A stretch of 64,000 nt of DNA from a virus (lineage: Duplodnaviria > Heunggongvirae > Uroviricota > Caudoviricetes): the IMG/VR virus record IMGVR_UViG_2878528002_000001, positions 98,473 to 162,472 of that record; one strand, 5' to 3'. The notes beneath the pieces were generated by a model that searched no databases, was not told the DNA's origin, and saw only the letters and a list, made by a program, of their open reading frames with translations. Positions 6,045 through 59,902 of this stretch are shown here, in pieces. The position numbers and the translations under genes are program-made. How positions within the stretch are numbered: the stretch's first letter is position 1; each line of letters opens with the position of its first letter.

Positions 6045-6151
6045 AATTGTTTGTATTGTGAGCTTTGTTTTACTTACATGTGTTGCTATTGGTGCATCAT
6101 TTGAATAATGGATAAAAGAAATTTTTTTATTGTATCAAAAGGGGTGATTTT

Positions 6152-10554: not shown

Positions 10555-10570
10555 AAATGTTGGGTGAAAA

Positions 10571-12516: not shown

Positions 12517-12867
12517 ATGGGATTGGCAAAATCTGGAATTTTGTCGGAGGTAGAATTCTATAAAATGATTATGCTGCCATATGAAGATCAACCGGATTAT
12601 CTGTTGTGTGATGATTTTAAATGGATAGAAAATGAATTTTTTGTATGGATTAGGCATGATCGAATCGAAGATTTTGTGGATTATTTTGTAACTAAATTCG
12701 GGAAAGAATGTTTCGATTATAAAAGCACAAAAGCCGATTTGACTATAGATCATGTGATTATAAATATGACAGATTTAATTGGACATGCGGTAGATATTGA
12801 ATCTGTATTTCCAAAAGATCCGCGCATGTTTAGCGAAAAGATAGACGATCACATAATGTGGGGTTGA
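12517..12867 (+). CDS. hypothetical protein
   Basis: ORF of 116 aa. Its 3' end is duplicated about 150 bp downstream, and a truncated paralog of its N-terminus lies at 13803..13925. Confidence 0.4.
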   Translation: MGLAKSGILSEVEFYKMIMLPYEDQPDYLLCDDFKWIENEFFVWIRHDRIEDFVDYFVTKFGKECFDYKSTKADLTIDHVIINMTDLIGHAVDIESVFPKDPRMFSEKIDDHIMWG

Positions 12868-12996
12868 TGCAGGTGGTATAGATGTGAAATTGCAGGATAC
12901 ATATGTTGTTATTAATTTATGTGAATTGTTTGGAGACACAGTAAATATTGAATCTGTATTTCCAAAAAAGGAATATACACATTAGGAGAATCTATT

Positions 12997-13802: not shown

Positions 13803-13925
13803 ATGACAAATTCTGGGATTTTGCCGGAAGTGAAATTGTATAAAATGATTATGCTTCCAAATGAATACGATTACGAAGATATCCTGATCGAAGAATTTGG
13901 TTGGGTAAAAGATATTTTAAATTAA
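13803..13925 (+). pseudogene. truncated paralog of the N-terminus of 12517..12867
   Basis: MTNSGILPEVKLYKMIMLPNEYDYEDIL aligns with MGLAKSGILSEVEFYKMIMLPYEDQPDYLL. Confidence 0.3.
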
Positions 13926-20122: not shown

Positions 20123-20720
20123 AGAAATTTTAAAGAAAGTGAAGGAGCTTGTTGAACTTCTGGAAAAGCAGGAAGAAGCTGACAAAGTTGTGTTGTCAAC
20201 ACTGAAACGAGGAGATGTGTTTCAGACCACTGGAAAGCGTAAATACAAGGTTCTGGAACAGTATGGAGATACAACGAAAATTATTTCGCTTGATCTGGTG
20301 AAAGAAAATGTAGAGTTTGGTGATACCTCAGATTACAAAACATCAAACGTAAAGAAACTGTGTGACACTGAAATTCTGAAAGACTTCGAAGAAGAATTCG
20401 GGGCAGAAAATGTCGAAACACACACAGCAGATATTATCACTGCGGATGGACAGAAATTTGGGACTGTTGATTATAAAATCCGTCCAATTACATTTGATGA
20501 AGCACGAGAATACACAGATATTACACCGAACAATGATCTGAACGACTGGTATTGGACATTATCGCCATGGTCAACGGAAGAACGTGGATGGAAAAAAAGT
20601 ATTACCGTTGTTTCCCCTTCGGGCTTTGTCAGCAGCCACGGCTATTACTTCAGCGTAAGTGGTGTTCGCCCAGTTTGTATCTTAAAATCTAATATCTTTG
20701 TATCTAAGGTGGAGGAATGA
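20097..20720 (+). CDS. hypothetical protein, tandem paralog A (C-terminal ..LSPWST..VSPSGFV..GVRPVC.. domain)
   Basis: Shares a C-terminal domain of about 65 aa with 20717..21322. The two copies share identical DNA 23-mers (TTGTTTCCCCTTCGGGCTTTGTC). Confidence 0.5.
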   Translation: MEATGMNNKEILKKVKELVELLEKQEEADKVVLSTLKRGDVFQTTGKRKYKVLEQYGDTTKIISLDLVKENVEFGDTSDYKTSNVKKLCDTEILKDFEEEFGAENVETHTADIITADGQKFGTVDYKIRPITFDEAREYTDITPNNDLNDWYWTLSPWSTEERGWKKSITVVSPSGFVSSHGYYFSVSGVRPVCILKSNIFVSKVEE

Positions 20721-21322
20721 TTATGAAGAAAAATCTGAAATATTTTGAGGATGAATTATCCAGATTAAGTAAAGAGTTCGTAGAATTCAAGAAAAAGCAC
20801 ATCGGAAAGCCGGAAATCGGAAAAGCTATTGAACTTGCTGGTATGGAATGGCTGATTCTGGATAAGACAGAAAAAGGATATTTTGCCATTTTGAATGGAT
20901 TTGATGGAAAAGAAAGAACATTTGATTCAGCTTCAAATAACTGGATTTCAAGTAAACTGAGAAATGAGTTAAACACTCGTTTTCTTAAAAAAATTACGGA
21001 CGAGCTTGGAGAAGATGCAGTTATTGAGTTTGATCGAGATTTACTTTCTATGGACGGTCAGACAGAATATGCACATTGTAAAGATAAGATTTCGATTTTG
21101 ACGGTGGATGAATACCGAAAATACAGAAAAATCCTTCCAAATATGGATAAATGGTGGTGGCTGCTTACTCCATGGAGTACACCAGCAAATGATTACAGTA
21201 CAACAATTGCTATTGTTTCCCCTTCGGGCTTTGTCTGCAGCGTCAATTGCTTCTACGTTTATGGTGTTCGCCCAGTTTGCATCTTTTCTTCTTCAATCTT
21301 TGAATCAGGAAATGATGATTGA
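20717..21322 (+). CDS. hypothetical protein, tandem paralog B
   Basis: Same C-terminal domain as paralog A. ATGA overlap. Confidence 0.5.
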   Translation: MIMKKNLKYFEDELSRLSKEFVEFKKKHIGKPEIGKAIELAGMEWLILDKTEKGYFAILNGFDGKERTFDSASNNWISSKLRNELNTRFLKKITDELGEDAVIEFDRDLLSMDGQTEYAHCKDKISILTVDEYRKYRKILPNMDKWWWLLTPWSTPANDYSTTIAIVSPSGFVCSVNCFYVYGVRPVCIFSSSIFESGNDD

Positions 21323-28009: not shown

Positions 28010-29119
28010 ATGAAAGACATTAAGATTGTGATTGGAAGTAATTTTGGGGATGAGGGAAAAGGAATGATGACAGATTTCTTTTCCCAGAAATCAAACAGCA
28101 TTGTAGTGTGTTCAAACGGCGGAGCACAACGCGGACATACCGTAGTAACTCCAGATGGAATCAGACATGTCTTTCATCATTTTGGTTCCGGAGCATTTAA
28201 TGGAGCAAGCACGTATTTACCAGAAGATTTTATCTTAAATCCAGTTGTTTTCCGCCAGGAATTACACGAGCTTTACAGAGTAAAGCATCTTCCCGCAACA
28301 TATATTCATAATGATTGTATGGTCACAACTCCATGGGATATGATGGCAAATCAGATTGTTGAAGAAAGTCGTGGTAAGAATAAACACGGAAGTTGTGGCA
28401 TGGGAATTTTTGAAACAATTACACGCTACAAGGCGGGAGTAGTTGATTTAGATTCTTCTATTCGCGATTATTATTTGGAACGGTTTTCGGAAGAAAATAT
28501 ACAGTTATCTGATTCATGGAAAACTCTTATTATGAATGATGATATATTCGATCATTTCTTAGATGATTTGGATTTTATGAACGAATATTGTTCTGTAATT
28601 TCTGATGACTATTTTCTAAATCTATTCGATAACATTGTATTCGAGGCAGGACAGGGTTTACTACTTGATCAGAACAATCTTGAATATTTTCCAAATTTAA
28701 CTCCTTCAAATACAGGCATTAAAAATCCTAAGAAAATTATTGAACGTGTTGAGTGGAATGATGAGATCGAGATAGAAACCTGTTATGTTACAAGAACATA
28801 TATGACGAGACACGGTGTGGGCAAGTTTCCTACTGAATGTAATAAATCGGTAATTAATGGAAAAATGTTTGATAAAACAAATGTACCTAATATTCATCAG
28901 AATTCATTAAGATACGGAACATTAGATTACGAAGAATTATGTAGTAGATGTTCAAACGATGTTAAAGATTTTGGGGATAAAAAATCTATTGCTATCACAC
29001 ATTGCAATGAATTTCCATATGATTCAAATAAAATCTCTGAAATATTTAAAGGATGGGATATTTACTATTCTAATGGAGAAATTCGGGACAGTATCAATAG
29101 AAAGTGTGATAGTTTATGA
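28010..29119 (+). CDS. adenylosuccinate synthetase (PurA) homolog; candidate PurZ-type N6-succino-2-amino-2'-deoxyadenylate synthase
   Basis: Aligns along its length with PurA: IGSNFGDEGKGMMTD (P-loop with Asp13), NGGAQRGHTVV (His41 loop), FEAGQGLLLD (FEGAQG), VGKFPTE. The guanine-specificity (T/S)KLD motif position reads ITHCNE. Confidence 0.7.
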   Translation: MKDIKIVIGSNFGDEGKGMMTDFFSQKSNSIVVCSNGGAQRGHTVVTPDGIRHVFHHFGSGAFNGASTYLPEDFILNPVVFRQELHELYRVKHLPATYIHNDCMVTTPWDMMANQIVEESRGKNKHGSCGMGIFETITRYKAGVVDLDSSIRDYYLERFSEENIQLSDSWKTLIMNDDIFDHFLDDLDFMNEYCSVISDDYFLNLFDNIVFEAGQGLLLDQNNLEYFPNLTPSNTGIKNPKKIIERVEWNDEIEIETCYVTRTYMTRHGVGKFPTECNKSVINGKMFDKTNVPNIHQNSLRYGTLDYEELCSRCSNDVKDFGDKKSIAITHCNEFPYDSNKISEIFKGWDIYYSNGEIRDSINRKCDSL

Positions 29120-45375: not shown

Positions 45376-45675
45376 ATGTATAAAGAATTAAGTAAAGATG
45401 AAGATTTTTCAAAATCTTACCCTACATGGGTAATTGCGTATTGTGTTGACATCAATTCCTTTTTTGTAACAAATCAGAGACATTTCTTTTGGGAATACGA
45501 TAATGAATTTTCCTGTGAGAGTGATGCCATAGAATATTTCAAAACTCATTTAGATGAATTTAGGAAAATAAGGAATGGGATACTGACCTCAACTGGCGGT
45601 TGGAGTGTAAATAGCGATTTATATTTAGAAAATACACAAGAAAGTTTCAAATATGATGAAACGAATATTTCATGA
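45376..45675 (+). CDS. hypothetical protein
   Basis: ORF of 99 aa. Confidence 0.4.
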   Translation: MYKELSKDEDFSKSYPTWVIAYCVDINSFFVTNQRHFFWEYDNEFSCESDAIEYFKTHLDEFRKIRNGILTSTGGWSVNSDLYLENTQESFKYDETNIS

Positions 45676-45693
45676 GAAAAAAGGAGTTACTGA

Positions 45694-46722
45694 ATGACGA
45701 TTGAAGAAATCAAACAGAAAGTTGCGAGTAAAGAATATAACTTTTTAAGAGAAAATGAACACCTTGGAAAGAATATTATTCTTCTTGGACTTGGTGGAAG
45801 CCATGCATACGGAACGAACACGGAAAGTTCTGATCTCGATGTTCGTGGTATCGCAGTTAATAGAAAAGAAGAAATATTATCAAATATTCGTTTTGAACAG
45901 TTTGTTAATGAAGAAACGGATACGACAATTTATTCGTTTAACAAAATAATTGCGTTGTTGTCAAATTGCAATCCTAATACAATCGAAATCCTTGGATTAA
46001 AGCCGGAACATTACCTTTATATCAATTCTGTAGGAAAAGAATTGCTTAATAATTCACATATGTTTTTATCAAAAAAATGTGTGCAATCATTCGGCGGTTA
46101 TGCAAATAGCCAGTTGCGAAGGCTAGACAATAAAGCAGTTCGTCTTGTAGGACAGGCAGAAAGAGAGAATCATATATTAAATAGTATTAAAAATGCTTTT
46201 GCAACTTTTCCTGATAAATATTTTCCATTTAAAGATGGTGATATTAAACTCTATATAGATAAAGCCGTACAGGAAGATTATGATACCGAAATTTTCATGG
46301 ACGTTAATTTGAAACACTATCCACTAAGAGATTACAAATCTATGTGGTCTGAAATGAATAATATTGTGAAAGATTATTCCAAAATCGGCAAACGGAATAA
46401 GCACGCAATTGAGCATGAAAAACTTGGCAAACATATGATGCATTTGGTTAGATTATTTTACACATGTTTTGATATTCTTGAAAATGAAAGAATTGTTACG
46501 TATAGAAAAGAAGAACATGATTTGCTCATGGATATTCGAAATGGCAAATATCTTGATGATAATCGACAGCCAATACCGGAGTTCTTTGAGTTAGTGGATG
46601 AACTCGAAAAACGATTAGATTATGATAAAGTAAATACATCTCTTCCAGATAAACCAGATTATAAGAGAATTAATGATTTTGCAATTTCCGTCAATGAACG
46701 GATTGTAAAAGGAGAATTATAA
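45694..46722 (+). CDS. Pol-beta-superfamily nucleotidyltransferase
   Basis: IILLGLGGSHAYGTNTESSDLDVRGIAV matches the GS-x(9-13)-DxD minimal nucleotidyltransferase signature. Confidence 0.6.
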   Translation: MTIEEIKQKVASKEYNFLRENEHLGKNIILLGLGGSHAYGTNTESSDLDVRGIAVNRKEEILSNIRFEQFVNEETDTTIYSFNKIIALLSNCNPNTIEILGLKPEHYLYINSVGKELLNNSHMFLSKKCVQSFGGYANSQLRRLDNKAVRLVGQAERENHILNSIKNAFATFPDKYFPFKDGDIKLYIDKAVQEDYDTEIFMDVNLKHYPLRDYKSMWSEMNNIVKDYSKIGKRNKHAIEHEKLGKHMMHLVRLFYTCFDILENERIVTYRKEEHDLLMDIRNGKYLDDNRQPIPEFFELVDELEKRLDYDKVNTSLPDKPDYKRINDFAISVNERIVKGEL

Positions 46723-46958
46723 TATGTGGAAAAATACAAACAAATACAATAATATGATTAGTGCTTTCCAGTGTGATTTTGCATGTGCCAGAGACAGACT
46801 TTGTAATTTACGGTTATCCGACTTAGATACTGCAATTACAAATAAAGATGATCCTCGGTATAAAAGTATCAATGAAGATATTGATCTCCTTGAAGAACTA
46901 GAGTTTCTTCTTCGATACGGGAAAGCAAAAATTATGGTAAAAGAAGGAGAATAAACAT

Positions 46959-47342
46959 ATGGGAACTAAATTTCTAATTTTAATATCTATGGTTTTCTGC
47001 CATATTGTAGATGATTATTATTTACAGGGTTGGCTTGCATCCGCAAAACAGAAATCATGGTGGGATAAAAATTCGCCAGATAAATTATATAAACATGATT
47101 ATATTGCGGCGTTGTTCATGCACAGTTTTAGCTGGACATTCATGATGATGCTTGTTCCTACAATTTACATAATTCTATTTGGCGGAAGATATTACCCGTT
47201 AGTATTTGTAGTCAATCTCATTATTCATATGATTACCGATAACTTAAAAGCAAATGCAAAAGTAATTAATTTGTGTCAGGATCAGTTGATTCACATGATT
47301 CAGATTATTGGAACGTTCATTGTTTTTATCATATGTAAATAA
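46959..47342 (+). CDS. integral membrane protein
   Basis: Several hydrophobic helices (FLILISMVFCHIV, FMMMLVPTIYIILFG, IIGTFIVFIIC). Confidence 0.45.
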   Translation: MGTKFLILISMVFCHIVDDYYLQGWLASAKQKSWWDKNSPDKLYKHDYIAALFMHSFSWTFMMMLVPTIYIILFGGRYYPLVFVVNLIIHMITDNLKANAKVINLCQDQLIHMIQIIGTFIVFIICK

Positions 47343-47367
47343 ATGACATTAAAAGGAGAATTTATTT

Positions 47368-47772
47368 ATGACAAAAGAAGAAGCTGTTGAAATAATCAAA
47401 AAAGATATGAGTAATATTATGGCTGATGAAAATACATTCAGAAGACAATATGATCTCCATCAGGCGGAAGCATTGGCGTTACAGGCTTTGAGTAATGAAA
47501 TTTTAGAATCAAATCAAAGAAAAGATTATGTTAAAATGACGCCAGGAAACATCGTTTATTTAAGAAAAGATAAATTATTTGCAATTGTACTTGATGTTTC
47601 AGACGATGAAATTCCTAATTACATGGTATATGATGAAAATAAGATAGTTCAAAAAATCTCAATAACTGAAGTATTGCCAATTATATCATCATCTATAAAA
47701 TATGACACTCAATTGTATTTTGACAAGATGATGTCGGAATTACATAGAATGAACCATCCAATGGAGAATTAA
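47368..47772 (+). CDS. hypothetical protein
   Basis: ORF of 134 aa with an AAAGGAGAATTTATTTATG RBS. Confidence 0.4.
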   Translation: MTKEEAVEIIKKDMSNIMADENTFRRQYDLHQAEALALQALSNEILESNQRKDYVKMTPGNIVYLRKDKLFAIVLDVSDDEIPNYMVYDENKIVQKISITEVLPIISSSIKYDTQLYFDKMMSELHRMNHPMEN

Positions 47773-47904
47773 TAACTGTCCAAGTATGAATGACATAAAA
47801 CTTATCATAAAGTAGCGATTATCTCTAACGAGATATGATAAGCCAGTTCATTAAGTGGCGGGTTAGGACTGGCATCTGAAAAGATGAAGCAACTTCCACA
47901 ATAA

Positions 47905-47990
47905 TGGGCATTCGCCAAGCGGATAAGGCACCAGAATTTGACTCTGGCAGAGTAAAACTCATTACGTTGGTTCGAATCCAACATGCCCAG
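47905..47990 (+). tRNA. tRNA, anticodon UUG (Gln-type identity: U1:A72, G73) but with an 18-nt type-II extra arm
   Basis: Manual fold: acceptor TGGGCAT/ATGCCCA, D-stem GCC/GGC, anticodon stem CCAGA/TCTGG with loop ATTTGAC, extra arm CAGAGTAAAACTCATTAC (GAGT/ACTC stem), T-arm GTTGG-TTCGAAT-CCAAC. Confidence 0.6.
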
Positions 47991-47994
47991 TTTT

Positions 47995-48075
47995 GCGGAT
48001 ATGGCGGAACGGCAGACGCAGAAGACTCAAAATCTTCCGGAGAAATTCATGTGGGTTCAAATCCCACTATCCGTA
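47995..48075 (+). tRNA. tRNA-Leu (anticodon CAA), type II
   Basis: Acceptor GCGGATA/TATCCGT (G1.U72), anticodon stem GAAGA/TCTTC with loop CTCAAAA, 13-nt variable arm, T-arm GTGGG-TTCAAAT-CCCAC, A73. Confidence 0.65.
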
Positions 48076-48391
48076 TTAGGCTAATATTTGTAAGTAAGTT
48101 GCTGAAGCGCAAGGTGATTGAAAACAAAATTAGACCTAAAGTTATAACTTTTAACGCGTGTTGTGATCTGGAACCGAGTAAAGTTGGGGCTACGGCATAC
48201 TGGTTGTATGGTTTGGGTATGCATTTTTTGAGTCAGCTACAATGACGAGGGTTGTGGTGAAATGGCGAGGATGTCGGGGGTAACGCCGATGTGTAGTCGT
48301 AGTTGATGAGAAATATCTTTCAAGTTCAATGCAGCGAGGGAAGATGAACGGATCGTAGGCTTAGTATATCTTTCACGTCTAGTATTAAACC

Positions 48392-48462
48392 TGCTCGTTG
48401 GTGCAATGGTAGCACAATAGGGATGATTCCTAGTGATAAAGGTTCGATTCCTTTGCGAGCAA
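48392..48462 (+). tRNA. tRNA-like gene with canonical D- and T-arms but aberrant anticodon loop (GATGATT; apparent anticodon UGA, A at position 33)
   Basis: Acceptor TGCTCGT/GCGAGCA, D-arm GTGC-AATGGTA-GCAC, T-arm AAAGG-TTCGATT-CCTTT. The anticodon stem is only 4 bp (TAGG/CCTA) and the loop lacks U33. Confidence 0.45.
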
Positions 48463-48495
48463 TATCTCGAAATCACAAAAAATGTTGGAGGTAAA

Positions 48496-48777
48496 ATGAA
48501 ATATATAGAGAATATAGTAATAGGAAATCCAATTTTGCCACCATGTGTTATGTTTGCTTCTGATGTGCATGATTGGATAAATAATGAAATTGAGAAGACT
48601 TATTATACAAATGAACGATTTTTACCAAAGATTTTGGTAGAGCTTGGCATCTATCCGTCGATAAGTGAAATTCGAAGAAACAAACCTGATCTTATGGTTT
48701 CATTAGATAGACTAGATTTCTTAGATAATTTGAAGATTAGTAAGAAAAGACGATTATGGATTTTAGTAGGAGAATAA
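48496..48777 (+). CDS. hypothetical protein
   Basis: ATG at 48496 after GGAGGTAAA. 93 aa. Confidence 0.4.
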   Translation: MKYIENIVIGNPILPPCVMFASDVHDWINNEIEKTYYTNERFLPKILVELGIYPSISEIRRNKPDLMVSLDRLDFLDNLKISKKRRLWILVGE

Positions 48778-48780
48778 GAA

Positions 48781-49050
48781 ATGGCAAAAGCAGTGGTAAT
48801 GCGAACTGATCAAGGAGTAATGTTGTTGGGAACAACTCAGACTGTTTCCGGAGCCTGGTGGAATGCTGAAGGATGCTATAAGTATTGTCAGAGAAATGAA
48901 AAATGGCAAGCTGCGTTACAGTCGCATAAATTGATTCATGCATCCTCATTGATTGGATATGAGAAGAATACAGAAGATTGGTATACAAAAAGAGAGAATT
49001 TTATAGATGTGGATGTATCTTATAAATGCTCTCAAACATACGGAGGATAA
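48781..49050 (+). CDS. hypothetical protein
   Basis: ORF of 89 aa. Confidence 0.4.
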   Translation: MAKAVVMRTDQGVMLLGTTQTVSGAWWNAEGCYKYCQRNEKWQAALQSHKLIHASSLIGYEKNTEDWYTKRENFIDVDVSYKCSQTYGG

Positions 49051-49053
49051 GTA

Positions 49054-49464
49054 ATGGAGAATATCGAGTTTCATGAAGGAGACTTCGTTCAGAGAAAAGA
49101 TGGTGCAATAGGTTACATATATTACATCTGTCATTGCTCAGATTGTAAAAGTCGAGGTTTCTTTGAACCGACTATTAAATATTTAAACGGTGAGACAGAA
49201 TATATTTCTAATTATGATGTTAAAAATCTTGAAAATTCTTATATTCAAATAGGTACTCATGTATTTGACAAAAATGCAAAAAGTAAGATAAAAAACAATT
49301 GTCCTAAATATTCTCTAATTGGAGAAATAACATATAAGGATATTGATCCGGATATCATTTCAAATGCGTTGATAGACATGAAAAATAATAATTATGTTCC
49401 AGTATTAAAAGATATTTCGTATTCCGGATCGAAATTATATTGGATTCTTAAAAAGGAGAACTAA
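49054..49464 (+). CDS. hypothetical protein
   Basis: ORF of 136 aa. Confidence 0.4.
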   Translation: MENIEFHEGDFVQRKDGAIGYIYYICHCSDCKSRGFFEPTIKYLNGETEYISNYDVKNLENSYIQIGTHVFDKNAKSKIKNNCPKYSLIGEITYKDIDPDIISNALIDMKNNNYVPVLKDISYSGSKLYWILKKEN

Positions 49465-50396
49465 TGAACAAGTTATTTACACATACAGATTTAGATGGCG
49501 TTGGATGCGCTATTATAGCAAAATTGGTTTACGGAGATGAAATAGATATTTCGTTCTGTGATTATAACGAAGTTGATGAAAAAGTTGGAAAATGCCAGCC
49601 TAATAATTATGATCATATCGATATAACAGATATTAGCGTTGGTGAAAAACTTGGTAAATCTATAGATGAAAATTATTCAAATCAAGTTAATTTATATGAT
49701 CATCACGCAACGGCAAAAGATCTTGATAAATATTCGTGGGCAGTCGTTAAGGTAAATGACGAGGGAACAGGATTAATGACATGTGGTACAGAAATTTATT
49801 ATAACCATATTGGTCAGTATATTGATAAAGAATATCGATTGGCTGTCGAGTCATTTGTAAAATATGTAACGTTATGGGATACGTGGAGATGGAAAGAAAA
49901 AAATTCTGGATTAGCAGGAGCCAATGCTAAGAAAATCAATACTTTATTTGGTATTTATGGAAGAGAGAAATTTATCAAATGGGCGATTGATCATATAAAA
50001 TCTGGAGTCTTCCCCAATTTTACAGTAGCAGATTTGAGCATTTTAGAAGCTAAACAGAATGAAATTTTTCGATATATTGATGAAAAAGACAATCAATATA
50101 TTAAGAGAAAAGATTTTGCAGGAAGAGTATTTGGTGTGGTGTTTACAGAAAATTACATTAGTGAACTTGGAAATGCCTTATGTGAACGACATCCAGAATT
50201 AGCTTATGCTGTAATTATTGATATTGGAAATGGAAATGTTTCTTATAGAACTATTCGCGATGATATTAATTTAGGAAAAGATATTGCCTCATTATGTGAT
50301 GGCGGTGGACATGCTAAAGCAGCTGGTTCAGAATTTGGAAAAATCATTGCTTATGATGTAATTGATAAGCTTTTTAAAGGCAGGATTATATCATAA
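49464..50396 (+). CDS. DHH-DHHA1 family phosphoesterase (NrnA/oligoribonuclease-like)
   Basis: Motif I HTDLDGVGCAI, motif III YDHHAT (DHH) and DHHA1 DGGGHAKAAG. Confidence 0.75.
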   Translation: MNKLFTHTDLDGVGCAIIAKLVYGDEIDISFCDYNEVDEKVGKCQPNNYDHIDITDISVGEKLGKSIDENYSNQVNLYDHHATAKDLDKYSWAVVKVNDEGTGLMTCGTEIYYNHIGQYIDKEYRLAVESFVKYVTLWDTWRWKEKNSGLAGANAKKINTLFGIYGREKFIKWAIDHIKSGVFPNFTVADLSILEAKQNEIFRYIDEKDNQYIKRKDFAGRVFGVVFTENYISELGNALCERHPELAYAVIIDIGNGNVSYRTIRDDINLGKDIASLCDGGGHAKAAGSEFGKIIAYDVIDKLFKGRIIS

Positions 50397-50410
50397 CGAG
50401 GTATTAAAAT

Positions 50411-50788
50411 ATGACTAATTATTTTAGTAATATATTCCATAATATTAGTAACTTAATAATGGATTGTTATGATGCTCACAAAAATAAATGGGTAGATATA
50501 ATTCTCTACGATAGTCATCCACATATAGGTGATGTCGTATATACAAAAATGAATACAGTTCTGGATATTGGAATAATAAAAAATTTAAACCCGCTTCAAA
50601 TATATGCACGAAGCACCAAATATGATAGGTGCGGAATTCCGGGCCAATTTGGTGGTGTATTATATTGTACGTGGTATAATTCTAAAATCAATTTATCTCT
50701 TAGCGAATGGATAAAAATATCAAAAGATTCTGATGTAAAAACTGTATGTAGTAGGATTAACATTCCATATTACAGATCATATGATTAA
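50411..50788 (+). CDS. hypothetical protein
   Basis: ORF of 125 aa. Confidence 0.4.
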   Translation: MTNYFSNIFHNISNLIMDCYDAHKNKWVDIILYDSHPHIGDVVYTKMNTVLDIGIIKNLNPLQIYARSTKYDRCGIPGQFGGVLYCTWYNSKINLSLSEWIKISKDSDVKTVCSRINIPYYRSYD

Positions 50789-50903
50789 TTTGGACGATTA
50801 TTTCAGTGATTTTTCTCCAGAAGAATACATTGAGCAAACGGATGAATACTTTAACGAAATTATTTCAAGAATTCTCCCACTTCTAAAGTGGTGAGATGAA
50901 TTG

Positions 50904-52143
50904 AAAAAAGAGAATTATATATAAGAAGGTGGTGATTATGAATGTTGGTTGCATATAAATATAGATTATATCCAAACAAAGAACAGCAAATATATTTTGC
51001 AAAATGTTTTGGATGTGTACGATTCATTTATAATCGTATGCTTTCAGATAAAATTGAACATTATAAAGAAACAAAACAGAGACTTAACAATACACCAGCT
51101 CAATATAAGAAAGAATTTCCTTGGTTGAAAGAAGTTGATTCACTTGCACTAGCAAACGCACAGATGAATTTACAGACAGCTTATAATAATTTTTTCAAAA
51201 GACCAGAAGTAGGATTTCCTAAATTCAAGAGCAAGAAAAGTCATAAATATTCTTATACTACTAATAATCAAGGTGGAAACATTTATGTTTCTGACAGATA
51301 CATTAAATTACCTAAGATTGGGTTGATAAGAATAAAGAAGCATAGAGATTTTGAAGGGTTAATAAAATCGGTGGCAGTCTCTCAGAAACCATCTGGAAAA
51401 TATTATGTTTCAGTTTTGGTTGAATGTGATGAAATTGAAAAACTTCCGAAATCGGAATCTGAAATTGGAATAGATTTAGGTCTAAAAGACTTTGCTATTC
51501 TGTCGAATGAAGAAAAAATAGCTAATCCGAAATACTTATCCAAATCTGAACTCAAACTTAGGAAATTGCAAAAAGATTTATCCAGATGTCAAAAAGGTAG
51601 CAAGAATAGAAATAAGTGCAGAATAAAAGTTGCGAAGCAACATGAGAAAATTGTAAATCAAAGAAAAGATTTTCTAAACAACCTATCCAAAAGACTTATT
51701 TGTGAAAACCAAACAATATGTCTTGAGGACTTGAAAATCAAGGAAATGATGAGTAATAAACAAATATCAAAATCGGTTGCAGATGTATCATGGAGTGAAT
51801 TTGTGAGACAGCTCGAATATAAAGCACAATGGTATGAACGAGAAATTATAGAAATAAGCACATGGTTTCCGTCAAGTCAGACGTGTTCTTGTTGCGGGTA
51901 TATCAATAAAAGGATCAAAGACACAAATATTCGAGAATGGATATGTCCTAATTGCAATGTACACCACGATAGAGATATCAACGCAGCAATAAATATCCTC
52001 AATGAAGGATTGAGAATAAGAACCGCAGGAACTGTGGAGATAGCCTAAGTAAACTTGTCTCGGTAGAGATATTGACTAGGAAGCTCAGACCTCTAAGCAA
52101 AGCGTAAGGTCGTGAGTAGTTCACACAATTAGAACGAGAAGAT
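50904..52143 (+). mobile_element. IS200/IS605-family tnpB-only element (IS1341-like); ends approximate
   Basis: A single TnpB ORF with about 95 nt of structured noncoding sequence between its stop and the next gene. No tnpA is present and the exact left and right ends were not determined. Confidence 0.45.
50942..52048 (+). CDS. tnpB: TnpB (IS605 OrfB-family RNA-guided nuclease/transposase accessory protein)
   Basis: N-terminus MLVAYKYRLYPNKEQ, central RuvC-like region, C-terminal zinc finger CSCCGYINKR..WICPNCNVHHDRDINAAINI. Confidence 0.85.
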   Translation: MLVAYKYRLYPNKEQQIYFAKCFGCVRFIYNRMLSDKIEHYKETKQRLNNTPAQYKKEFPWLKEVDSLALANAQMNLQTAYNNFFKRPEVGFPKFKSKKSHKYSYTTNNQGGNIYVSDRYIKLPKIGLIRIKKHRDFEGLIKSVAVSQKPSGKYYVSVLVECDEIEKLPKSESEIGIDLGLKDFAILSNEEKIANPKYLSKSELKLRKLQKDLSRCQKGSKNRNKCRIKVAKQHEKIVNQRKDFLNNLSKRLICENQTICLEDLKIKEMMSNKQISKSVADVSWSEFVRQLEYKAQWYEREIIEISTWFPSSQTCSCCGYINKRIKDTNIREWICPNCNVHHDRDINAAINILNEGLRIRTAGTVEIA

Positions 52144-52389
52144 ATGATTGAAAGATTACGAGAATTCTTTGATCGTGGATGTGGATATTCTGAAACACAA
52201 GAACAACTTAATGATTGGATACAAGAGTCTATTAAAGAGCTTGATCCTAAAACCACATCATATTTCGATGATTGTATGATTACGAATTATGATGGTAGCG
52301 AACTTCTTGGTGGCTTAGATAATTTTGTCAACATATTTTGGGATAAGGCTATTGAAGGAATACTAAATGTTGTTGCTACCGAAAATTAA
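52144..52389 (+). CDS. hypothetical protein
   Basis: ORF of 81 aa immediately after the IS element. Confidence 0.4.
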   Translation: MIERLREFFDRGCGYSETQEQLNDWIQESIKELDPKTTSYFDDCMITNYDGSELLGGLDNFVNIFWDKAIEGILNVVATEN

Positions 52390-52392
52390 ACA

Positions 52393-52432
52393 CTATATAT
52401 TGTGTGTATTATCTATATACCACAATATATAG
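52393..52432. repeat. perfect 12-bp inverted repeat CTATATATTGTG / CACAATATATAG with a 16-nt spacer
   Basis: Read directly from the sequence. It lies 3 nt after the stop of 52144..52389. Confidence 0.6.
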
Positions 52433-52503
52433 ATTGAAATTCTGATGAAATTTTAGTTTCATTTGCAAATTCTAATCAGTCTATTCTGACTGAAATTTCC
52501 AGT

Positions 52504-52560
52504 AAAAAGAGAAATAAAATATAGGTGGCAACAGCATACCTTTGGAATTCCATAAACCAC
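52504..52560 (+). promoter_or_regulatory. conserved intergenic motif copy 2 (AAAAAGAGAA-n-TATAT...GG.GG.A.AGCATACC..TGG.ATTCC.A..CCAC)
   Basis: Shares a leader of about 55 nt with copy 3 at 53805 and the first about 25 nt with copy 1 at 50904. Contains the palindrome TGGAATTCCA. Confidence 0.35.
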
Positions 52561-52652
52561 TGTTTACATAGAATTATCTTATAGATTTACTTCTATGTTC
52601 CGTCGATTTTTCGGCGTTTATATAAAATTAAATACAGAAAGGATGATGAAAG

Positions 52653-53105
52653 ATGAGTGGTGAAATAGGTATTGAAATTGGTAAAATTGATTTTAATAGG
52701 GTCGATGATTTGATAAGACCATATAGAAATGCATCAATTTATACTGACAACAATCCAGCCCAGGATTTGACTATTACCAGCACAAGCAATGAAACATTTC
52801 ATATTTGTGGAAATAATGATTGGGCATATTTAGCAGTAAATGCGTTTTCTCCATTATTACAATATGCTTCACTTGTAGAAAATGAGGTTTCCGGTAAACT
52901 CAGAAGAATGGATAGAGACAAAAATTTGAAACCTAAAGTTATTGGATTGGGTAGAAATGAGTTTAGAGCATTGGATATTCTACATAGAATTCGCGGATCA
53001 GAAGAATCATTAAAAGAATACAGAAACATTCCTGTCGTAAGACTAGAAGAAGATAATACAATAGAATTTTTAGGTACAAAAGAATTTGATGTACCATTCA
53101 AATAA
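52653..53105 (+). CDS. hypothetical protein
   Basis: ORF of 150 aa with an AAAGGATGATGAAAGATG RBS. Confidence 0.45.
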   Translation: MSGEIGIEIGKIDFNRVDDLIRPYRNASIYTDNNPAQDLTITSTSNETFHICGNNDWAYLAVNAFSPLLQYASLVENEVSGKLRRMDRDKNLKPKVIGLGRNEFRALDILHRIRGSEESLKEYRNIPVVRLEEDNTIEFLGTKEFDVPFK

Positions 53106-53123
53106 AAAGGGGAAATAAAATAT

Positions 53124-53762
53124 ATGGCAGAAAATTATTTTAAATTACTGTATGACGTTGATGTAAGCGGAAAAGTCAAAGAAAAAAACGGATTAAGCTT
53201 TTTATCTTGGGCGGCTGCATGGGCAGAAATTAAGAAAAGGCATCCAGATGCAACTTACAAAATTTATCATCAGACAATTACGAGGCATGTTGGTGACGAA
53301 AATAGTTGGTACGAAACTACATTTGAAAGACCATGGTTTGACGACGGAAGATCTGGATGGGTAAAAACTAGCGTCACAGTTAATGGTATTGAACATATCG
53401 AAGAACTTGCTATTATGAATTTTAGTAATAAATCCATTGAAGCGGAAAAAATCACATCTACGGATGCTACCAAATCATTTCAGAGAGCTATCACAAAAGC
53501 ATGTGCAAGACACGGAATCGGACTCTTCGTATATGAAGGAGAGGATCTTCCTGAAGAACTTAAAGTGACTGCGAAATTACAGGCAGAATGTATGGATTTA
53601 ATGAAAAAGAAATCTGCGTTATCTGAAAAAACAAAAGAAAAAGTCGCAGAAATTTGCAAAGAAGTTCTCGCTGATGAAAATGGAGATCCGAGAATTTGCG
53701 AAAATAATGAGAAGCTCGAAGATTTAAAAAAGAAACTTCTAGCCACTAGAAAAATTGCTTAA
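53124..53762 (+). CDS. Rad52/Sak-like single-strand annealing protein (putative)
   Basis: GLSFLSWAAAWAEIKKRHPDATY resembles the LSYLSWA.AW signature of phage Sak/DUF1071 proteins. It sits beside SSB and a Cas4-like nuclease. Confidence 0.4.
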   Translation: MAENYFKLLYDVDVSGKVKEKNGLSFLSWAAAWAEIKKRHPDATYKIYHQTITRHVGDENSWYETTFERPWFDDGRSGWVKTSVTVNGIEHIEELAIMNFSNKSIEAEKITSTDATKSFQRAITKACARHGIGLFVYEGEDLPEELKVTAKLQAECMDLMKKKSALSEKTKEKVAEICKEVLADENGDPRICENNEKLEDLKKKLLATRKIA

Positions 53763-53804
53763 TTTATTTTATCTATTGACCAATTTCAGGTCAAAAATTC
53801 CACT

Positions 53805-53873
53805 AAAAAAAGAGAATTGTATATTGGGGCGGTATAGCATACCCCTGGGATTCCTATTCCCACAAATCACTAA
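53805..53873 (+). promoter_or_regulatory. conserved intergenic motif copy 3, upstream of ssb
   Basis: AAAAAAAGAGAATTGTATATTGGGGCGGTATAGCATACCCCTGGGATTCCTATTCCCAC. It has an extended -10-like TGTATATT and a TGGGA/TCCCA inverted repeat. Confidence 0.35.
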
Positions 53874-53898
53874 ATAATTAAACAGAGGAGAAAAACAT

Positions 53899-54285
53899 AT
53901 GTTTTCAGAAGGAAATTATGCGCACATTTGGGAGTTAGAGGACAAAGGTAAGTATCATGAAGCTCGTATGTCTACATCCAGAAAAAATAGTCAGACAGGA
54001 GAGTACGAACAGGACTGGTCATCATTTGGAGTTAGACTCGTTGCTACGGCTCACGAACAGGCAAAAAATCTCGATACAAGTAAAAATGTAAGAATTGGAA
54101 GATGTGGAGTTTCCAATAAATATGATAAAGAAAAGAAAATCACATATACAAACTATGTAATTTTTAATTTCGAAGATGAAAATTCTAATTCTGGCGGTAG
54201 CGATACTCAGAAACCTCAGAAATCAAAAGATGATTTTATGGATGTTTCCGCCTCTATTGACGACGATGAACTTCCATTCTGCTAA
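53899..54285 (+). CDS. ssb: single-stranded DNA-binding protein (divergent)
   Basis: An OB-fold-sized core followed by a Gly/Ser-rich linker and the acidic tail DDDELPF(C), the hallmark SSB C-terminus. Confidence 0.5.
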   Translation: MFSEGNYAHIWELEDKGKYHEARMSTSRKNSQTGEYEQDWSSFGVRLVATAHEQAKNLDTSKNVRIGRCGVSNKYDKEKKITYTNYVIFNFEDENSNSGGSDTQKPQKSKDDFMDVSASIDDDELPFC

Positions 54286-54655: not shown

Positions 54656-56581
54656 TTGATCGTTGACAGAAAACTTATTGAAAAAGCAAAAGAAAAACTT
54701 GGAAATCAGAACGCATTTATCATGGCAGAATTACTTGAACTTGAAGATTTTGATGAAAAAAATCTGAAATCCTGTTGCCCATATCATGATGAGGATACTC
54801 CAAGCTTTATTTACAATCCTAAAAATTATAGCATGCATTGCTTTTCATGCAATAAAACAGTAGATATCATTGATGTATTGATGGGAAAAGGAAGAACTTT
54901 TCTTGAATCCGTCCAGTTTCTATTTGATAAAGCAGGAATCGAATGTAGTTTTGGTGAACAGAATGTAAAGACCAAACATAATTATCGTTATCCGCATGAA
55001 GAACCAATTAATGATAAACCAAATGTTGTTGACTATTTTGGTAAACGTGGCATTTCAAAAAATGTTCTGGATTACCTTGATGTGAGAGAAGACAATCATG
55101 GCAATGCCGTATTCAACTTCTATGATACAAACGACGTTCTTACTATGGTGAAATATCGCCCATCTCATACAGTAGAAAAACATTCTGGACAGCCGAAAAC
55201 ATGGTGTCAGAAAGATTCGGATACCGCACCATTGCTTTTCAATATGAACCGCGTCAACACATCAAAACCTCTCCTTTGTACGGAAGGCGAAATTGACTGC
55301 GCTAGTGCAATCGAGGCAGGATATCTAAACACGGTCAGCGTTCCTCTCGGAGCGGGGAATCTCCATTGGATTGAAGAAAACTGGGATTGGCTTGATACTT
55401 TTGACGACATAATCATCTGGTCTGATAACGATGTAGCAGGTGAAAAAATGCGAAAAGAGTGCATTTACAGACTCGGAACATGGCGCACAAAGTACATTGT
55501 TACACCAGAGTATTATGAAAAAGAAGACGGACGTAAGATTCCACTGAAAGATATCAATGACTGTTTGCAGATTGGCGGTAAGCAGTTTGTAATGGATTTG
55601 ATTTCCGCGGCAAAAGATGTTCCTGTAAAAAGTGTTGTTGATTACTCAGAGATTGAGGAACTTGATGTATCACAGATGGACGGGGTACAAACGGGAATCA
55701 AGCCTCTGGACAATGAATTAGGTAAACTGTTTTATGGTACACTCACGATTTTATCAGGGAGGCCAGGATCTGGGAAAACCTCGCTTATCGACCAGGCGAT
55801 TGCTATGACAATCGACAATGGCAGCCCGACATTCTTATATTCCAAAGAGCTGCCGGAACGTCTTTCTGCAAACTGGTTTAATACAATTATCGCAGGACGC
55901 AGGAATATGGTAGAAAAACATAATAGTAGCGGTAAAAAATATTATGTTGTTCCATATGATACACAGAAAAAAATGCAGCAGTATTATAATAAGAAGCTTT
56001 TCATTTACAAAGACGAGGAATCTAATGATTTTGAAGCTGTGCTGAAATCAGCTGAAGAATGCGTGAGAAAATTTGGTTGCAAATTAATCGTGTTGGATAA
56101 TCTCATGATGCTCGACTTGAAGTGCAATGAAAGTGATAAAAACACAGCTCAGACAAATCTTATAAATCTATTAATCAAATTCGCCGTGAAGTTCAATGTC
56201 ACGGTAGTCTTAATTGCTCATCCAAGGAAAACCCAGGATTCAAATTCAGATATTGAAATGTATGATATTGCCGGAAGTTCCAATATTATCAACCTTGCCA
56301 TGAGATCTATTGGTTTGCGTCGTGTTTCCAAAAAGGAAAAAGAAGACCCTAAATACAAATGGCATAAATATGATGTTGTACTAACTGTAATGAAAGACAG
56401 GATGTTTGGTAAGTCCGATGTACAAATTGGACTGTGGTATGACTTAGTATCCAGAAGATTTTATACGGATTACGCGGAATATGACAAGCAATTCGCGTGG
56501 GACGACAATTATTACATTGACAAATTGGAGTATGTGGATAGAGGACGGGTTGATCCTGAAGATGAATTTCCTGATAAGTAA
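54656..56581 (+). CDS. primase-helicase (DnaG-type zinc-binding + TOPRIM fused to DnaB/gp4-like helicase)
   Basis: Zinc-binding domain CCPYHDEDTPSF..HCFSCNK, TOPRIM LLCTEGEIDCASAIEAG and IIIWSDNDVAGEKM, Walker A LSGRPGSGKTSLIDQ, Walker B LIVLDNLMML. Confidence 0.85.
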   Translation: MIVDRKLIEKAKEKLGNQNAFIMAELLELEDFDEKNLKSCCPYHDEDTPSFIYNPKNYSMHCFSCNKTVDIIDVLMGKGRTFLESVQFLFDKAGIECSFGEQNVKTKHNYRYPHEEPINDKPNVVDYFGKRGISKNVLDYLDVREDNHGNAVFNFYDTNDVLTMVKYRPSHTVEKHSGQPKTWCQKDSDTAPLLFNMNRVNTSKPLLCTEGEIDCASAIEAGYLNTVSVPLGAGNLHWIEENWDWLDTFDDIIIWSDNDVAGEKMRKECIYRLGTWRTKYIVTPEYYEKEDGRKIPLKDINDCLQIGGKQFVMDLISAAKDVPVKSVVDYSEIEELDVSQMDGVQTGIKPLDNELGKLFYGTLTILSGRPGSGKTSLIDQAIAMTIDNGSPTFLYSKELPERLSANWFNTIIAGRRNMVEKHNSSGKKYYVVPYDTQKKMQQYYNKKLFIYKDEESNDFEAVLKSAEECVRKFGCKLIVLDNLMMLDLKCNESDKNTAQTNLINLLIKFAVKFNVTVVLIAHPRKTQDSNSDIEMYDIAGSSNIINLAMRSIGLRRVSKKEKEDPKYKWHKYDVVLTVMKDRMFGKSDVQIGLWYDLVSRRFYTDYAEYDKQFAWDDNYYIDKLEYVDRGRVDPEDEFPDK

Positions 56582-56596
56582 GAGAGGTAAATTTCA

Positions 56597-59500
56597 TTGA
56601 TTCAAAATTATCATTGTCATAAATCATATAGTAATATTTTAGTTGCTGATTGTCCTGCTTCATATGATGATTATTTTAAAAGAGTTGTAGAATTAGGACA
56701 TAATGTAATATCAAGTGTAGAACATGGATATCAAAGCAACTACTATATTCCATATGAAATTGTCAATAATTATAATGACAAATTAAAGAAGCAAGTAGAA
56801 GAAGGTACTCTATCTGGATCTGAATACAATAGAAAGAAGCTTAAATTTATTTTTGGAGCAGAGGCTTATTGGGTAAAAGATAGACTTGCTGAATATTCCA
56901 AAATAGATAAAAAAACAGGGAAGATTGTATCTGCAAAAGACAGAACAAATTGCCATATTATTTTGTTAGCAAAAAATGAAGAGGGTCGGCAGGATATTAA
57001 TGAAGTCCTTTCAATTGCGAATATAGATGGATTCTATGGACAGCCACGAATCGATATAGATCTTCTTCTAAAAATCAAACCAGAAAATGTATTGGTAACA
57101 ACAGCTTGTTTAAAATACTGGGTTTATGAAGATATAGATGAAATTACAAAAACCTTGCATAATCATTTTAAAGAAAATTTCTTTCTTGAAATTCAGTATC
57201 ATAATACCGATTTACAGAAAAAAATAAATCGACATATTCTCGAATTATCGGAAGAACTTGGAATTAAATTGATTTTTGGATATGATAGCCATTATATTTA
57301 TCCAGATGATTCTGTAGAACGAGATAATTATTTAGAAGCACGAGGAATCACTTATGACGAAGATGAAATTGGATGGTATATGGATTATCCGGATGAATCA
57401 GAAGTTCGCAGAAGATTACGTGAGCAAGGTGTTTTAAATGAAGAACAAATCAATGAATGTATTAATAATACAAATTTACTTCTTGATTTTGATGATATTG
57501 TTCTTGATAAACGAATTAAGCTGCCTAGAAATTATAAATTTAATGGTGAATGGGTAGGAGATAAATCCCAGGAATGGAGAGACAATAAACTTAGAGAACT
57601 TGTATATTCTAAATGGAATGATATAAAACACACGATTTCGCCGGACAGATACGAAGAATATGAAAAAGGTATTGAATACGAACTTGATGCCATTATTGGT
57701 ACAAAAATGTCTGATTATTTCTTAATTGACTATGAGTTAGTTCGTATTGGCACATCCAACGGTGGAGTAATTACAAAAACAGGTAGAGGAAGTGGTGTTT
57801 CATATTATATAAATTCACTTCTTGGATTTAGTAATATTGACAGATTTATTTCCCCTGTAACATTATATCCAGACCGATTTATTTCAAAAACGCGAATCTT
57901 AAAAACTCGTTCACTACCTGACCTTGATCTAAATCTTGGAACTGTAGATATTTTTGCAAAGGCACAACTTGAAGTTATGGGTGAAGGACATGCTTATCCC
58001 ATGATTTCGTATAAACCATTAAAAACATCTTCAGCATTCAAACTCTATGCAAAATCCCAAAAACTTGATTTTCAAATTGCAAATGACATATCTGCACAGA
58101 TTAAAGAATATGAAAAAGCTTTAAAAAATGCAGATGATGATATGAAAGATACCATCGACCTTTATGATTTTGTAGATAAGAAATATAGAAGATATATTGA
58201 AGAAAGTAAAAAATATCAAGGTATTATTAATGCCAAATCCCAGGCTCCTTGTGGGTATCTGATTTATGACGGGGATATTAAAAGAGAGGTCGGACTTATT
58301 CGTTGTAAATCAGAATCTACCAAGAAAGAAGTTATCACAACTGTCATTGATGGAATGGTAGCTGAAAATTACAAATTTGTTAAAAATGATTTATTAAAAG
58401 TAGATATTTGGCTTACAATTAATAATATTTTTAAGATGGCGGGAGTCAAAACTCCTACCGTTCCAGAGATGACTAAACTTATTGAGAATGATGAAAAAAC
58501 ATGGAGTGTTTATAAGAGTGGATACACATTAGGAGTCAATCAATGCGAATCTTCATTCGGTATTCAATGTTGTAAAAAATATCAGCCACAAGATATGAGA
58601 GAATTAACATCTCTTGTTGCAGCTCTTCGTCCTGGATTCAAAACTCAGTTAGATACCTTTTTAAATAGATTACCATATACAACCGGAGTTCAAGAACTGG
58701 ATGATCTTTTAAAAGATTCTTTTCATTATATGATGTATCAAGAATCTATTATGACATATCTTGGATGGCTTGGTATTGAACAAACAGAGACTTATGCTAT
58801 TATCAAAAAAATTAGTAAAAAGAAATTTAAAGAAAAGGAATTGACTGAACTAAAAGCTAAATTGCTTAATGGATGGATTAAAAATGTCGGTACGGAGAAT
58901 GGATTTACAAAAACATGGGAAATCATTGAGGCTGCCGCAAAATATTCTTTCAATGCATCCCATGCTCTGAGCTATGCCTACGATTCTGTATATGGAGCTT
59001 ATGCAAAAGCTCATTATCCATATGAATTCTATGCTGTTATGATGCAACACTATGCTGATAAAGGTAATAAAGATAAAGTAACTGCATATAAAAAAGAAAT
59101 GTTTGAATTTGCCAAAATAAAAGAAGGATCATATAAACTTGGTCTTGACAACAGAAAATTTACAATCGATAAAAAGAATAAAGTAATTCATCCCGCGCTA
59201 TCTTCGATAAAAAATTTCTCATATGCAATTGCAGAAAAATTATATGAATTAGGAAAAAATAAATATGCTACATTTGAGGAAGTATTGGTTGCTTTTAGAG
59301 TAGCTGGAATATCTGAATCAAGAATCGAAGATTTAATTAAAATTAGTTATTTTTCTGATTTTGGAAATATCAATTATCTTCTTCATTATCTAAATATCTT
59401 TAAATTATTCTTCAAAAATAAACAATATCTGAAACAGCCCACAAAAGAAAGCATGTTTAAAAATAATATTGACTTCGATATTCTTCGGCAACACTGTCAA

Positions 59501-59902
59501 TCAGAATCTCCTAAAAATTTTATGAATATTGATGCATCCGCTATTATCAGGGATTTGTGTGAAAACTATCAGATTGATACTAAATTCAAAGATATGCTGA
59601 AAATGAGAAAAGATATTTTAGGATATTATGATATCGTAGATAAAAAGTATCAAAGATATTGCGTTGTAGAAGACTTAAATGTCAATTATTCTCCTAAAAT
59701 AATGTTATATCCATTAGCAAATGGAAACTCTTTTCAGGTAAAAATAAAGAAAGCTATTTTTAAAAAGTATCCACTAAAACGAGGTGATATTATAAAAGTA
59801 GTAGACAGTGATCATCAGTACAAAATGAAAAAAGTTGATGGAGAATGGGTTAAATCTACAACGGAGAAGGAATGGTGGATAAATGAGTACAAGGTATATT
59901 AA
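56597..59902 (+). CDS. dnaE: DNA polymerase III alpha subunit (DnaE-like) with N-terminal PHP domain
   Basis: PHP domain NYHCHKSYSNILVADC and palm motif TGRGSGVSYYINSLLGFSNIDRF (compare DnaE PGRGSAAGSLVAY). 1101 aa. Confidence 0.85.
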   Translation: MIQNYHCHKSYSNILVADCPASYDDYFKRVVELGHNVISSVEHGYQSNYYIPYEIVNNYNDKLKKQVEEGTLSGSEYNRKKLKFIFGAEAYWVKDRLAEYSKIDKKTGKIVSAKDRTNCHIILLAKNEEGRQDINEVLSIANIDGFYGQPRIDIDLLLKIKPENVLVTTACLKYWVYEDIDEITKTLHNHFKENFFLEIQYHNTDLQKKINRHILELSEELGIKLIFGYDSHYIYPDDSVERDNYLEARGITYDEDEIGWYMDYPDESEVRRRLREQGVLNEEQINECINNTNLLLDFDDIVLDKRIKLPRNYKFNGEWVGDKSQEWRDNKLRELVYSKWNDIKHTISPDRYEEYEKGIEYELDAIIGTKMSDYFLIDYELVRIGTSNGGVITKTGRGSGVSYYINSLLGFSNIDRFISPVTLYPDRFISKTRILKTRSLPDLDLNLGTVDIFAKAQLEVMGEGHAYPMISYKPLKTSSAFKLYAKSQKLDFQIANDISAQIKEYEKALKNADDDMKDTIDLYDFVDKKYRRYIEESKKYQGIINAKSQAPCGYLIYDGDIKREVGLIRCKSESTKKEVITTVIDGMVAENYKFVKNDLLKVDIWLTINNIFKMAGVKTPTVPEMTKLIENDEKTWSVYKSGYTLGVNQCESSFGIQCCKKYQPQDMRELTSLVAALRPGFKTQLDTFLNRLPYTTGVQELDDLLKDSFHYMMYQESIMTYLGWLGIEQTETYAIIKKISKKKFKEKELTELKAKLLNGWIKNVGTENGFTKTWEIIEAAAKYSFNASHALSYAYDSVYGAYAKAHYPYEFYAVMMQHYADKGNKDKVTAYKKEMFEFAKIKEGSYKLGLDNRKFTIDKKNKVIHPALSSIKNFSYAIAEKLYELGKNKYATFEEVLVAFRVAGISESRIEDLIKISYFSDFGNINYLLHYLNIFKLFFKNKQYLKQPTKESMFKNNIDFDILRQHCQSESPKNFMNIDASAIIRDLCENYQIDTKFKDMLKMRKDILGYYDIVDKKYQRYCVVEDLNVNYSPKIMLYPLANGNSFQVKIKKAIFKKYPLKRGDIIKVVDSDHQYKMKKVDGEWVKSTTEKEWWINEYKVY

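Follow-up and report, generated by a model that had tools for sequence, protein, structure and literature searches.

Organization of the locus

The window examined here is a stretch of 64,000 nucleotides from the phage record IMGVR_UViG_2878528002_000001 (positions 98,473 to 162,472). Within it, positions 50855–52124 very probably represent a non-autonomous, tnpB-only (IS1341-type) insertion sequence of the IS200/IS605 family, which lies within a small phage gene on the 3' side of a TTTAA motif. This kind of element is already known, and TnpB genes are common in phages and are mentioned in several papers. Sequence comparison established for this copy the exact ends, the subterminal hairpins, the TTTAA transposon-adjacent motif (TAM), an intact TnpB, a covarying omega-RNA scaffold, and empty alleles of the insertion site. 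The element lies in the replication and recombination region of a large, low-GC phage, where the neighboring ORFs are all on the + strand; its GC content is 32.4%, compared with 32.7% for the window. [quoted passage not shown]

49464–50396, + strand: DHH phosphoesterase
50781–50854, + strand: 5' part of the split gene (24 codons and 2 nt), which reads on into the LE to give a 38-aa fusion ORF
50850–50854, + strand: TTTAA TAM, immediately 5' of the LE
50855–50941, + strand: LE, 87 nt, boundary from empty-site alignments; includes the tnpB ribosome-binding site
50873–50896, + strand: LE subterminal hairpin TCTCCCACTTCTAAAGTGGTGAGA, ssDNA fold of −9.7 kcal/mol, z = −3.8
50942–52048, + strand: tnpB, full-length ORF of 368 aa; RuvC residues D178, E262 and D345, zinc-finger residues C315, C318, C335 and C338
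52023–52124, + strand: omega-RNA scaffold core predicted from covariation, formed by the last ~26 nt of tnpB and the 76-nt RE
52049–52124, + strand: RE, 76 nt, noncoding, with the terminus ...GTAGTTCAC; boundary from the limit of conservation and the empty site
52083–52117, + strand: RE subterminal hairpin, ssDNA fold z = −2.6
52125–52144, + strand: predicted guide template and target half-site ACAATTAGAACGAGAAGATA (16–20 nt), starting at the first flanking base past the RE and overlapping the start codon of the 81-aa ORF
52125–52389, + strand: 3' part of the split gene, within which the 81-aa ORF (52144–52389) starts at an internal ATG
53124–53762, + strand: Sak-like annealing protein, 1 kb downstream of the element
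54656–56581, + strand: primase/helicase
56597–59902, + strand: DNA polymerase

Joining 50781–50854 to 52125–52389 restores an ORF of 112 codons. An intact counterpart of 116 aa is present at 5383–5733 of L082, a locus of a related 201-kb phage, and a homologous-protein search identified several protein clusters that hold full-length homologues of 112–116 aa. Judged by these intact versions, the element sits within a small phage gene and splits its 112-codon ORF, and not between unrelated small genes as had been proposed in the original prediction. The annotation of the downstream 81-aa ORF is corrected accordingly, this ORF being a remnant of the 112-aa gene. The interrupted gene, for which no Pfam or PHROG match was found, is apparently dispensable.

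Several other differences and repeats were observed in the surrounding DNA. A mosaic breakpoint relative to the 201-kb phage lies directly 3' of the interrupted gene, such that 134 nt of the window (52372–52505) correspond to positions 5704–6846 of L082, where three additional small ORFs of no known function (83, 93 and 145 aa) are found. The primase/helicase is 641 aa in the window and 960 aa in the metagenome contig L164. This is due to an in-frame insertion of ~319 aa (L164 ~5215–6171) within the Walker A motif (GRPG/C...N/SGKTS), at a position equivalent to ~55769 of the window, the window copy being without it; from its sequence, the insertion looks like an intein. The window also contains diverged direct repeats of 70–75% identity (12524–12633 and 13804–13913; 20639–20704 and 21241–21306; 12752–12816 and 12903–12967), which probably derive from paralogous neighboring small genes and are unrelated to the TnpB element.

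Definition of the element ends by empty sites

The ends of the element were defined by comparison with alleles in which the site is uninterrupted, as the original prediction had recommended. A search of IMG/VR with the exact empty-site sequence gave 0 matches, and a scan of metagenomes then identified an empty site in contig ERZ1034691 NODE-909 (L164), in which both window flanks are matched exactly and ...GAATACTTTAA is followed by ACAATTAGAACGAGAAGATATGATTG... (the same junction is also given as ...GAATACTTTAA followed by ACAATTAGAACGAGAAGATATG...). The 201-kb phage IMGVR_UViG_2834277561_000001 (L081/L082) is 95–96% identical to window positions 45436–50854 and then resumes at 52125 without a gap. 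Because these two related phages run uninterrupted across the 50854/52125 junction, the element is placed at exactly 50855–52124. By this alignment it is 1,270 bp long and has neither a target duplication nor terminal inverted repeats; the flanks of the junction are TTTAA and ACAATT, with no duplication in L082 or L164 relative to the window.

The right end was also determined from the limit of conservation among relatives. In 47 loci, conservation ends exactly past GTTCAC (...GTAGTTCAC), and these loci continue into 27 distinct downstream sequences. That conservation ceases in every locus right past this terminus identifies 52124 as the last position of the element. These boundaries differ from the extent of 50904–52143 initially assigned, as the empty-site alignments move the left end 49 nt and the right end 19 nt further to the left. 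The 3' noncoding sequence, taken to be about 95 nt, is thus an RE of 76 nt, and positions 52125–52143 are flanking target DNA that could serve as guide template. The comparison confirmed the presence of IS-type ends.

The TnpB protein

The 368-aa ORF at 50942–52048 matches the Pfam families HTH_OrfB_IS605 (PF12323), OrfB_IS605 (PF01385) and Cas12f1-like_TNB (PF07282), all above cutoff, and thereby shows an HTH/WED, RuvC and zinc-finger (TNB) architecture at curated family thresholds. It also scores 503.9 bits against the NCBIfam model IS200_TnpB (NF038281), for which the cutoff is 425. The best natural match among solved structures is ISDra2 TnpB (8bf8, 8h1j, 8exa), with E ~1e-84 over residues 4–357. 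In this alignment D178, E262 and D345 correspond to D191, E278 and D361 of ISDra2 TnpB, so that the RuvC triad is kept, and C315, C318, C335 and C338 correspond to C331, C334, C351 and C354, so that the CxxC..CxxC zinc finger is kept as well. The view that tnpB is intact, with its RuvC and zinc-finger regions, is borne out, and the RuvC residues, on whose presence the original prediction depended, are all found.

No further copy of the element, of tnpB or of the ends was found anywhere in the 64-kb window. A second candidate TnpB at 28010–29119 (369-aa ORF) was rejected, since this ORF is not a TnpB. A megablast search of deposited phage genomes gave zero matches, and the best tblastn match among these genomes was Clostridium phage c-st, with 61% identity to TnpB; 430 records of the phage collection match the window TnpB protein. 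The closest bacterial TnpBs, at 75–80% identity, are from Eubacterium segne, Lachnospira, Lactonifactor and Lachnospiraceae MAGs. These matches suggest that the host of the phage is probably a gut member of the Lachnospiraceae.

A covarying omega-RNA scaffold at the 3' end of tnpB

We aligned the equivalents of positions 51925–52124 from 27 distinct relatives (alignment A1) and analyzed them with RNAalifold and with explicit counts of paired positions. The predicted scaffold, in which all helices are on the + strand, contains the following elements.

52023–52026 with 52034–52037: stem 1
52029–52033 (GAACU) with 52118–52122 (AGUUC): pseudoknot, just before the guide
52044–52048 with 52076–52080: stem 2
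52056–52061 with 52066–52071: stem 3
52083–52086 with 52114–52117: stem 4, with an inner stem at 52088–52092 and 52107–52111

Of the cells counted in the alignment, 98.6% are paired, compared with 85% in shuffles, and compensatory changes occur in 14 pairs. The covariation score was 0.486, compared with 0.218 in shuffles (0 of 500 reached the observed score) and 0.04–0.09 in slid controls. The window sequence by itself folds like the consensus (z = −2.7), and in most relatives the last stem is capped by a UUUA loop. The conserved omega-RNA pseudoknot for which folding of the 3' region had been suggested was found, with 99.3% of its pairing kept; it is supported by two compensatory events, each in a single sequence (L029 and L031), and it shares nucleotides with two inner pairs of stem 1. 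RNAalifold also predicted a long-range helix between 51938–51943 and 52118–52123, which lies ~185 nt upstream and shows no compensatory change, and this helix was set aside. The pseudoknot with 52029–52033 is preferred because of its two compensatory events and because of the position of the pseudoknot in ISDra2.

A search of Rfam over positions 49000–54000 (E ≤ 1) found nothing, including no omega-RNA family and no group I intron, and a scan for promoters and terminators gave no signal above that of shuffles. With its four covarying helices, the scaffold follows the pattern of an omega-RNA: it extends from the last part of tnpB into the RE, it ends at the RE boundary, and its pseudoknot lies beside the guide. 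A guide RNA composed of tnpB 3' sequence and the right end, as initially proposed, is supported by a covarying scaffold that stops at this boundary.

Relatives of the element and mobility of the clade

In IMG/VR we identified about 45 loci with a TnpB 72–88% identical to that of the window. In about 18 independent insertions of these relatives, the LE is immediately preceded by TTTAA, which lies ~20 nt upstream of the hairpin, with a few variants (ATTAA, and two sites that are ambiguous); TTTAA is also the published target of IS605 (PMC13565253). The LE of the window type is present in L021, L034, L091, L110, L113, L115, L118 and L123, and the LE and RE hairpins are alike among relatives, sharing a AGCTTTAGCT core. 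An intact Y1 TnpA with HxH and Tyr motifs is encoded directly upstream of tnpB in L006, L018, L022, L026, L028 and L086, and tnpA is decayed in other relatives. When the 64-kb window was searched by tblastn with the TnpA of a relative, no tnpA was found (best E of 0.26). This absence fits the tnpB-only IS1341 subgroup, and within the window it upholds the initial description of a non-autonomous, IS1341-like unit. In viral contigs, the clade is present at 26 or more independent sites of insertion. On these comparisons, the clade is a mobile IS200/IS605 group, to which the window copy belongs as a derivative with tnpB only.

Other elements with related ends were observed in these contigs. L001 (IMGVR_UViG_3300029874_000357) contains at ~10555–10680 a miniature of ~120 nt, in which TTTAA and a window-type LE hairpin are fused to an RE ending in ...GTGAGTAGTTCGC. 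This miniature is PATE-like and non-coding and is located 3.4 kb downstream of the phage's own tnpB; a similar match occurs in L074. In L003 (~9254–9288), from another related phage, a second copy of an LE-like hairpin adjoins the apparent 3' end of a tRNA gene, and could represent an additional miniature or an insertion. The closest TnpB (88% aa identity) is in L043, with a decayed tnpA upstream; it is located on the L081/L082 contig, in which the site occupied in the window is uninterrupted. Its presence elsewhere on that contig indicates that sister phages carry related elements at different sites.

In the assembly collection, 160 blocks contain the exact TnpB protein, and its context was the same in 24 of 24 contigs examined. 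Among seven loci retrieved by exact identity of the TnpB protein (L166–L172), the element differs by 0–2 nt. As all copies of the exact element are at a single site, there is no sign of recent transposition by the window copy. One of the contigs with the identical insertion (L169; ERZ28637523 scaffold_23) is 336,821 bp long, and four blocks hold contigs of 0.2–1 Mb, other relatives being 160–200 kb; the length of L169 could reflect a phage with a larger genome, maintenance as a prophage or plasmid, or chimerism in the assembly.

The predicted guide and its natural target alleles

The original prediction placed the guide in the DNA just past the right end. We found this to be correct in principle, with 52125 as the first flanking base; since the RE ends at 52124, the guide would start there and not after 52143 as the earlier boundary implied. 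The predicted guide begins with ACAATTAGAACGAGAA..., a sequence that is unique in the window. In the window itself the guide match is preceded by GTTCAC and so is without a TTTAA TAM. The phage's own copy would be protected because GTTCAC, not TTTAA, precedes the match. TTTAA is kept in 12 of 12 empty alleles examined, and these alleles match the guide to different extents.

L164 empty allele: match at 20 of 20 guide positions
L173–L176 empty alleles: mismatch at position 17 only, with 16 of 16 matched over the first 16
L082 empty allele: mismatches at guide positions 4 and 17
L177–L182 empty alleles: mismatches at guide positions 1, 4 and 17

The allele of the target gene is 98–100% identical between the window and L164, and nearby DNA is 74–97% identical.

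Proposed mechanism and comparison with known systems

Nuclease activity of the window TnpB and homing between phages would be expected from the precedent of ISDra2 and Geobacillus TnpB. By analogy, an RNA transcribed across the tnpB 3' end and into the RE would be bound, and probably processed, by TnpB, and its 3' 16–20 nt (ACAATTAGAACGAGAA...) would guide the protein to DNA composed of TTTAA followed by the guide sequence. The target would be the uninterrupted allele, either the donor joint left after TnpA-mediated excision or the allele of a co-infecting related phage. The filled copy would be spared, as GTTCAC takes the place of TTTAA before its guide match. Cleavage followed by recombination with a filled copy would then restore or spread the element; the Sak-like annealing protein of the phage is encoded 1 kb downstream. 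Movement to new sites would require a Y1 TnpA supplied in trans. Precedent for such a mechanism is provided by Meers et al. (PMC10055086). In that study the TnpB of H. pylori IS608 was inactive, and some natural TnpBs with intact motifs are thus inactive.

The element shares with IS605/IS1341-type elements, such as IS605 of H. pylori, a TnpB (OrfB) gene, subterminal hairpins in the LE and RE, and the lack of inverted repeats and of a target duplication. Like them, it is inserted 3' to a short AT-rich sequence, the motif reported for IS605 being TTTAA (PMC13565253), and several of its relatives have a Y1 tnpA upstream of tnpB. The window copy differs in having no tnpA and in residing inside a phage gene, and its TnpB shares 75–80% identity with the nearest bacterial proteins and 61% with the best match from a deposited phage.

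The alignment with ISDra2 TnpB of Deinococcus radiodurans reveals an identical catalytic layout, and the topology of the predicted scaffold is comparable to that of the ISDra2 omega-RNA, with a stem 1/pseudoknot that uses nucleotides −6 to −3, nested stems 2 and 3, and a terminal stem 4 with the guide directly behind it. In the ISDra2 omega-RNA the pseudoknot pairs −5 to −3 with −105 to −103, and stem 4 has a UUUA loop (PMC10097598). The two systems differ in their TAMs (TTTAA for the window and TTGAT for ISDra2), and their scaffold sequences are unrelated. The loop of stem 4 is enlarged in the window, whereas most of its relatives have the UUUA tetraloop, and activity of the window system is a prediction.

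Similarities are also apparent to the TnpB/IscB elements (ISGst) of Geobacillus stearothermophilus (Meers et al., PMC10055086), which are mostly without tnpA and mobilized in trans, with a TAM common to TnpA and TnpB, a guide that targets the scarless donor joint, and PATE-like miniatures with the same ends. The window element differs in being carried by a phage, such that the empty target may be found in a co-infecting genome and not in a sister chromosome. The outcome could then resemble that of the free-standing Seg/Mob homing endonucleases of T4, in which an element-free allele in a co-infecting phage is cut and the element is copied by recombination; recognition by Seg/Mob is protein-based, whereas the window element would use a putative RNA guide and TAM.

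Alternative explanations for the persistence of the element

One explanation is that the element is an inert passenger, a fixed relic with a TnpB and an omega-RNA no longer active or expressed, which persists because the gene is dispensable and the lineage young. Copies that differ by 0–2 nt across samples at one shared site are compatible with this, as are the lack of a tnpA in the 64-kb window, a promoter scan with no signal above chance, and the record of inactive natural TnpBs (PMC10055086). The ORF, however, is full-length with every catalytic and zinc-binding residue present, the scaffold in the window keeps all of the covarying RNA helices, the TAM and both ends are intact, and the clade to which the copy belongs is represented at no fewer than 26 independent insertion sites in viral contigs. 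We consider an inert relic unlikely. Loss of function through domestication is far less compatible with the data. Phage-encoded TldR regulators derived from TnpB do exist, and a location inside a gene is typical of IStrons, but the possibilities that the element encodes a nuclease-dead, TldR-like regulator or is an IStron that splices out of its host gene are both exceedingly improbable. The protein is full-length and retains both the RuvC triad and the C-terminal region, and the element has IS ends and an empty site in relatives; Rfam identified no group I intron, for which the 87-nt LE would in any case be too short. The idea of a domesticated gene, considered in the original prediction, fails because related phages have the empty site, the ends are of the IS type, and the RuvC residues are all present.

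Another explanation, which is compatible with the sequences but which we regard as somewhat doubtful, is that the TnpB–omega-RNA is of benefit to the phage, being retained to cut competitor phages with an uninterrupted allele during co-infection and so to bring about marker exclusion or homing like that of the T-even Seg/Mob enzymes. Natural empty alleles combine the TAM with a perfect guide match (20/20 in L164, 16/16 in L173–L176), and others carry seed mismatches, at positions 1 and 4 (L177–L182) or at position 4 (L082). The near identity of the target allele between the window and L164 (98–100%, against 74–97% for nearby DNA), the Sak-like annealing protein nearby, and a literature proposal of 'non-restorative homing' into co-infecting phages point in the same direction. 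This support is purely comparative, however; polymorphic alleles and mosaic genomes are normal among phages, and there is no sign that selection for escape gave rise to the seed-mismatch alleles. In its most specific form, which is rather doubtful, the phage-borne TnpB–omega-RNA would be an RNA-guided homing or exclusion nuclease acting between co-infecting gut phages, cutting TTTAA-ACAATTAGAACGAGAA alleles of the L164 and L173–L176 types and converting them to filled alleles, with the mismatched alleles of L177–L182 and L082 as possible escape variants. No demonstration of non-restorative homing by TnpB was found for phages in the literature searched.

Setting these alternatives beside the reading of a tnpB-only IS200/IS605 insertion, the value of the locus lies in its being a fully resolved natural example, with exact ends, a TTTAA TAM, a predicted guide, and an omega-RNA supported by covariation. 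The occurrence among metagenomic relatives of filled alleles, of perfectly matching empty alleles, and of seed-mismatched empty alleles would make it a ready system for testing RNA-guided homing between phages.
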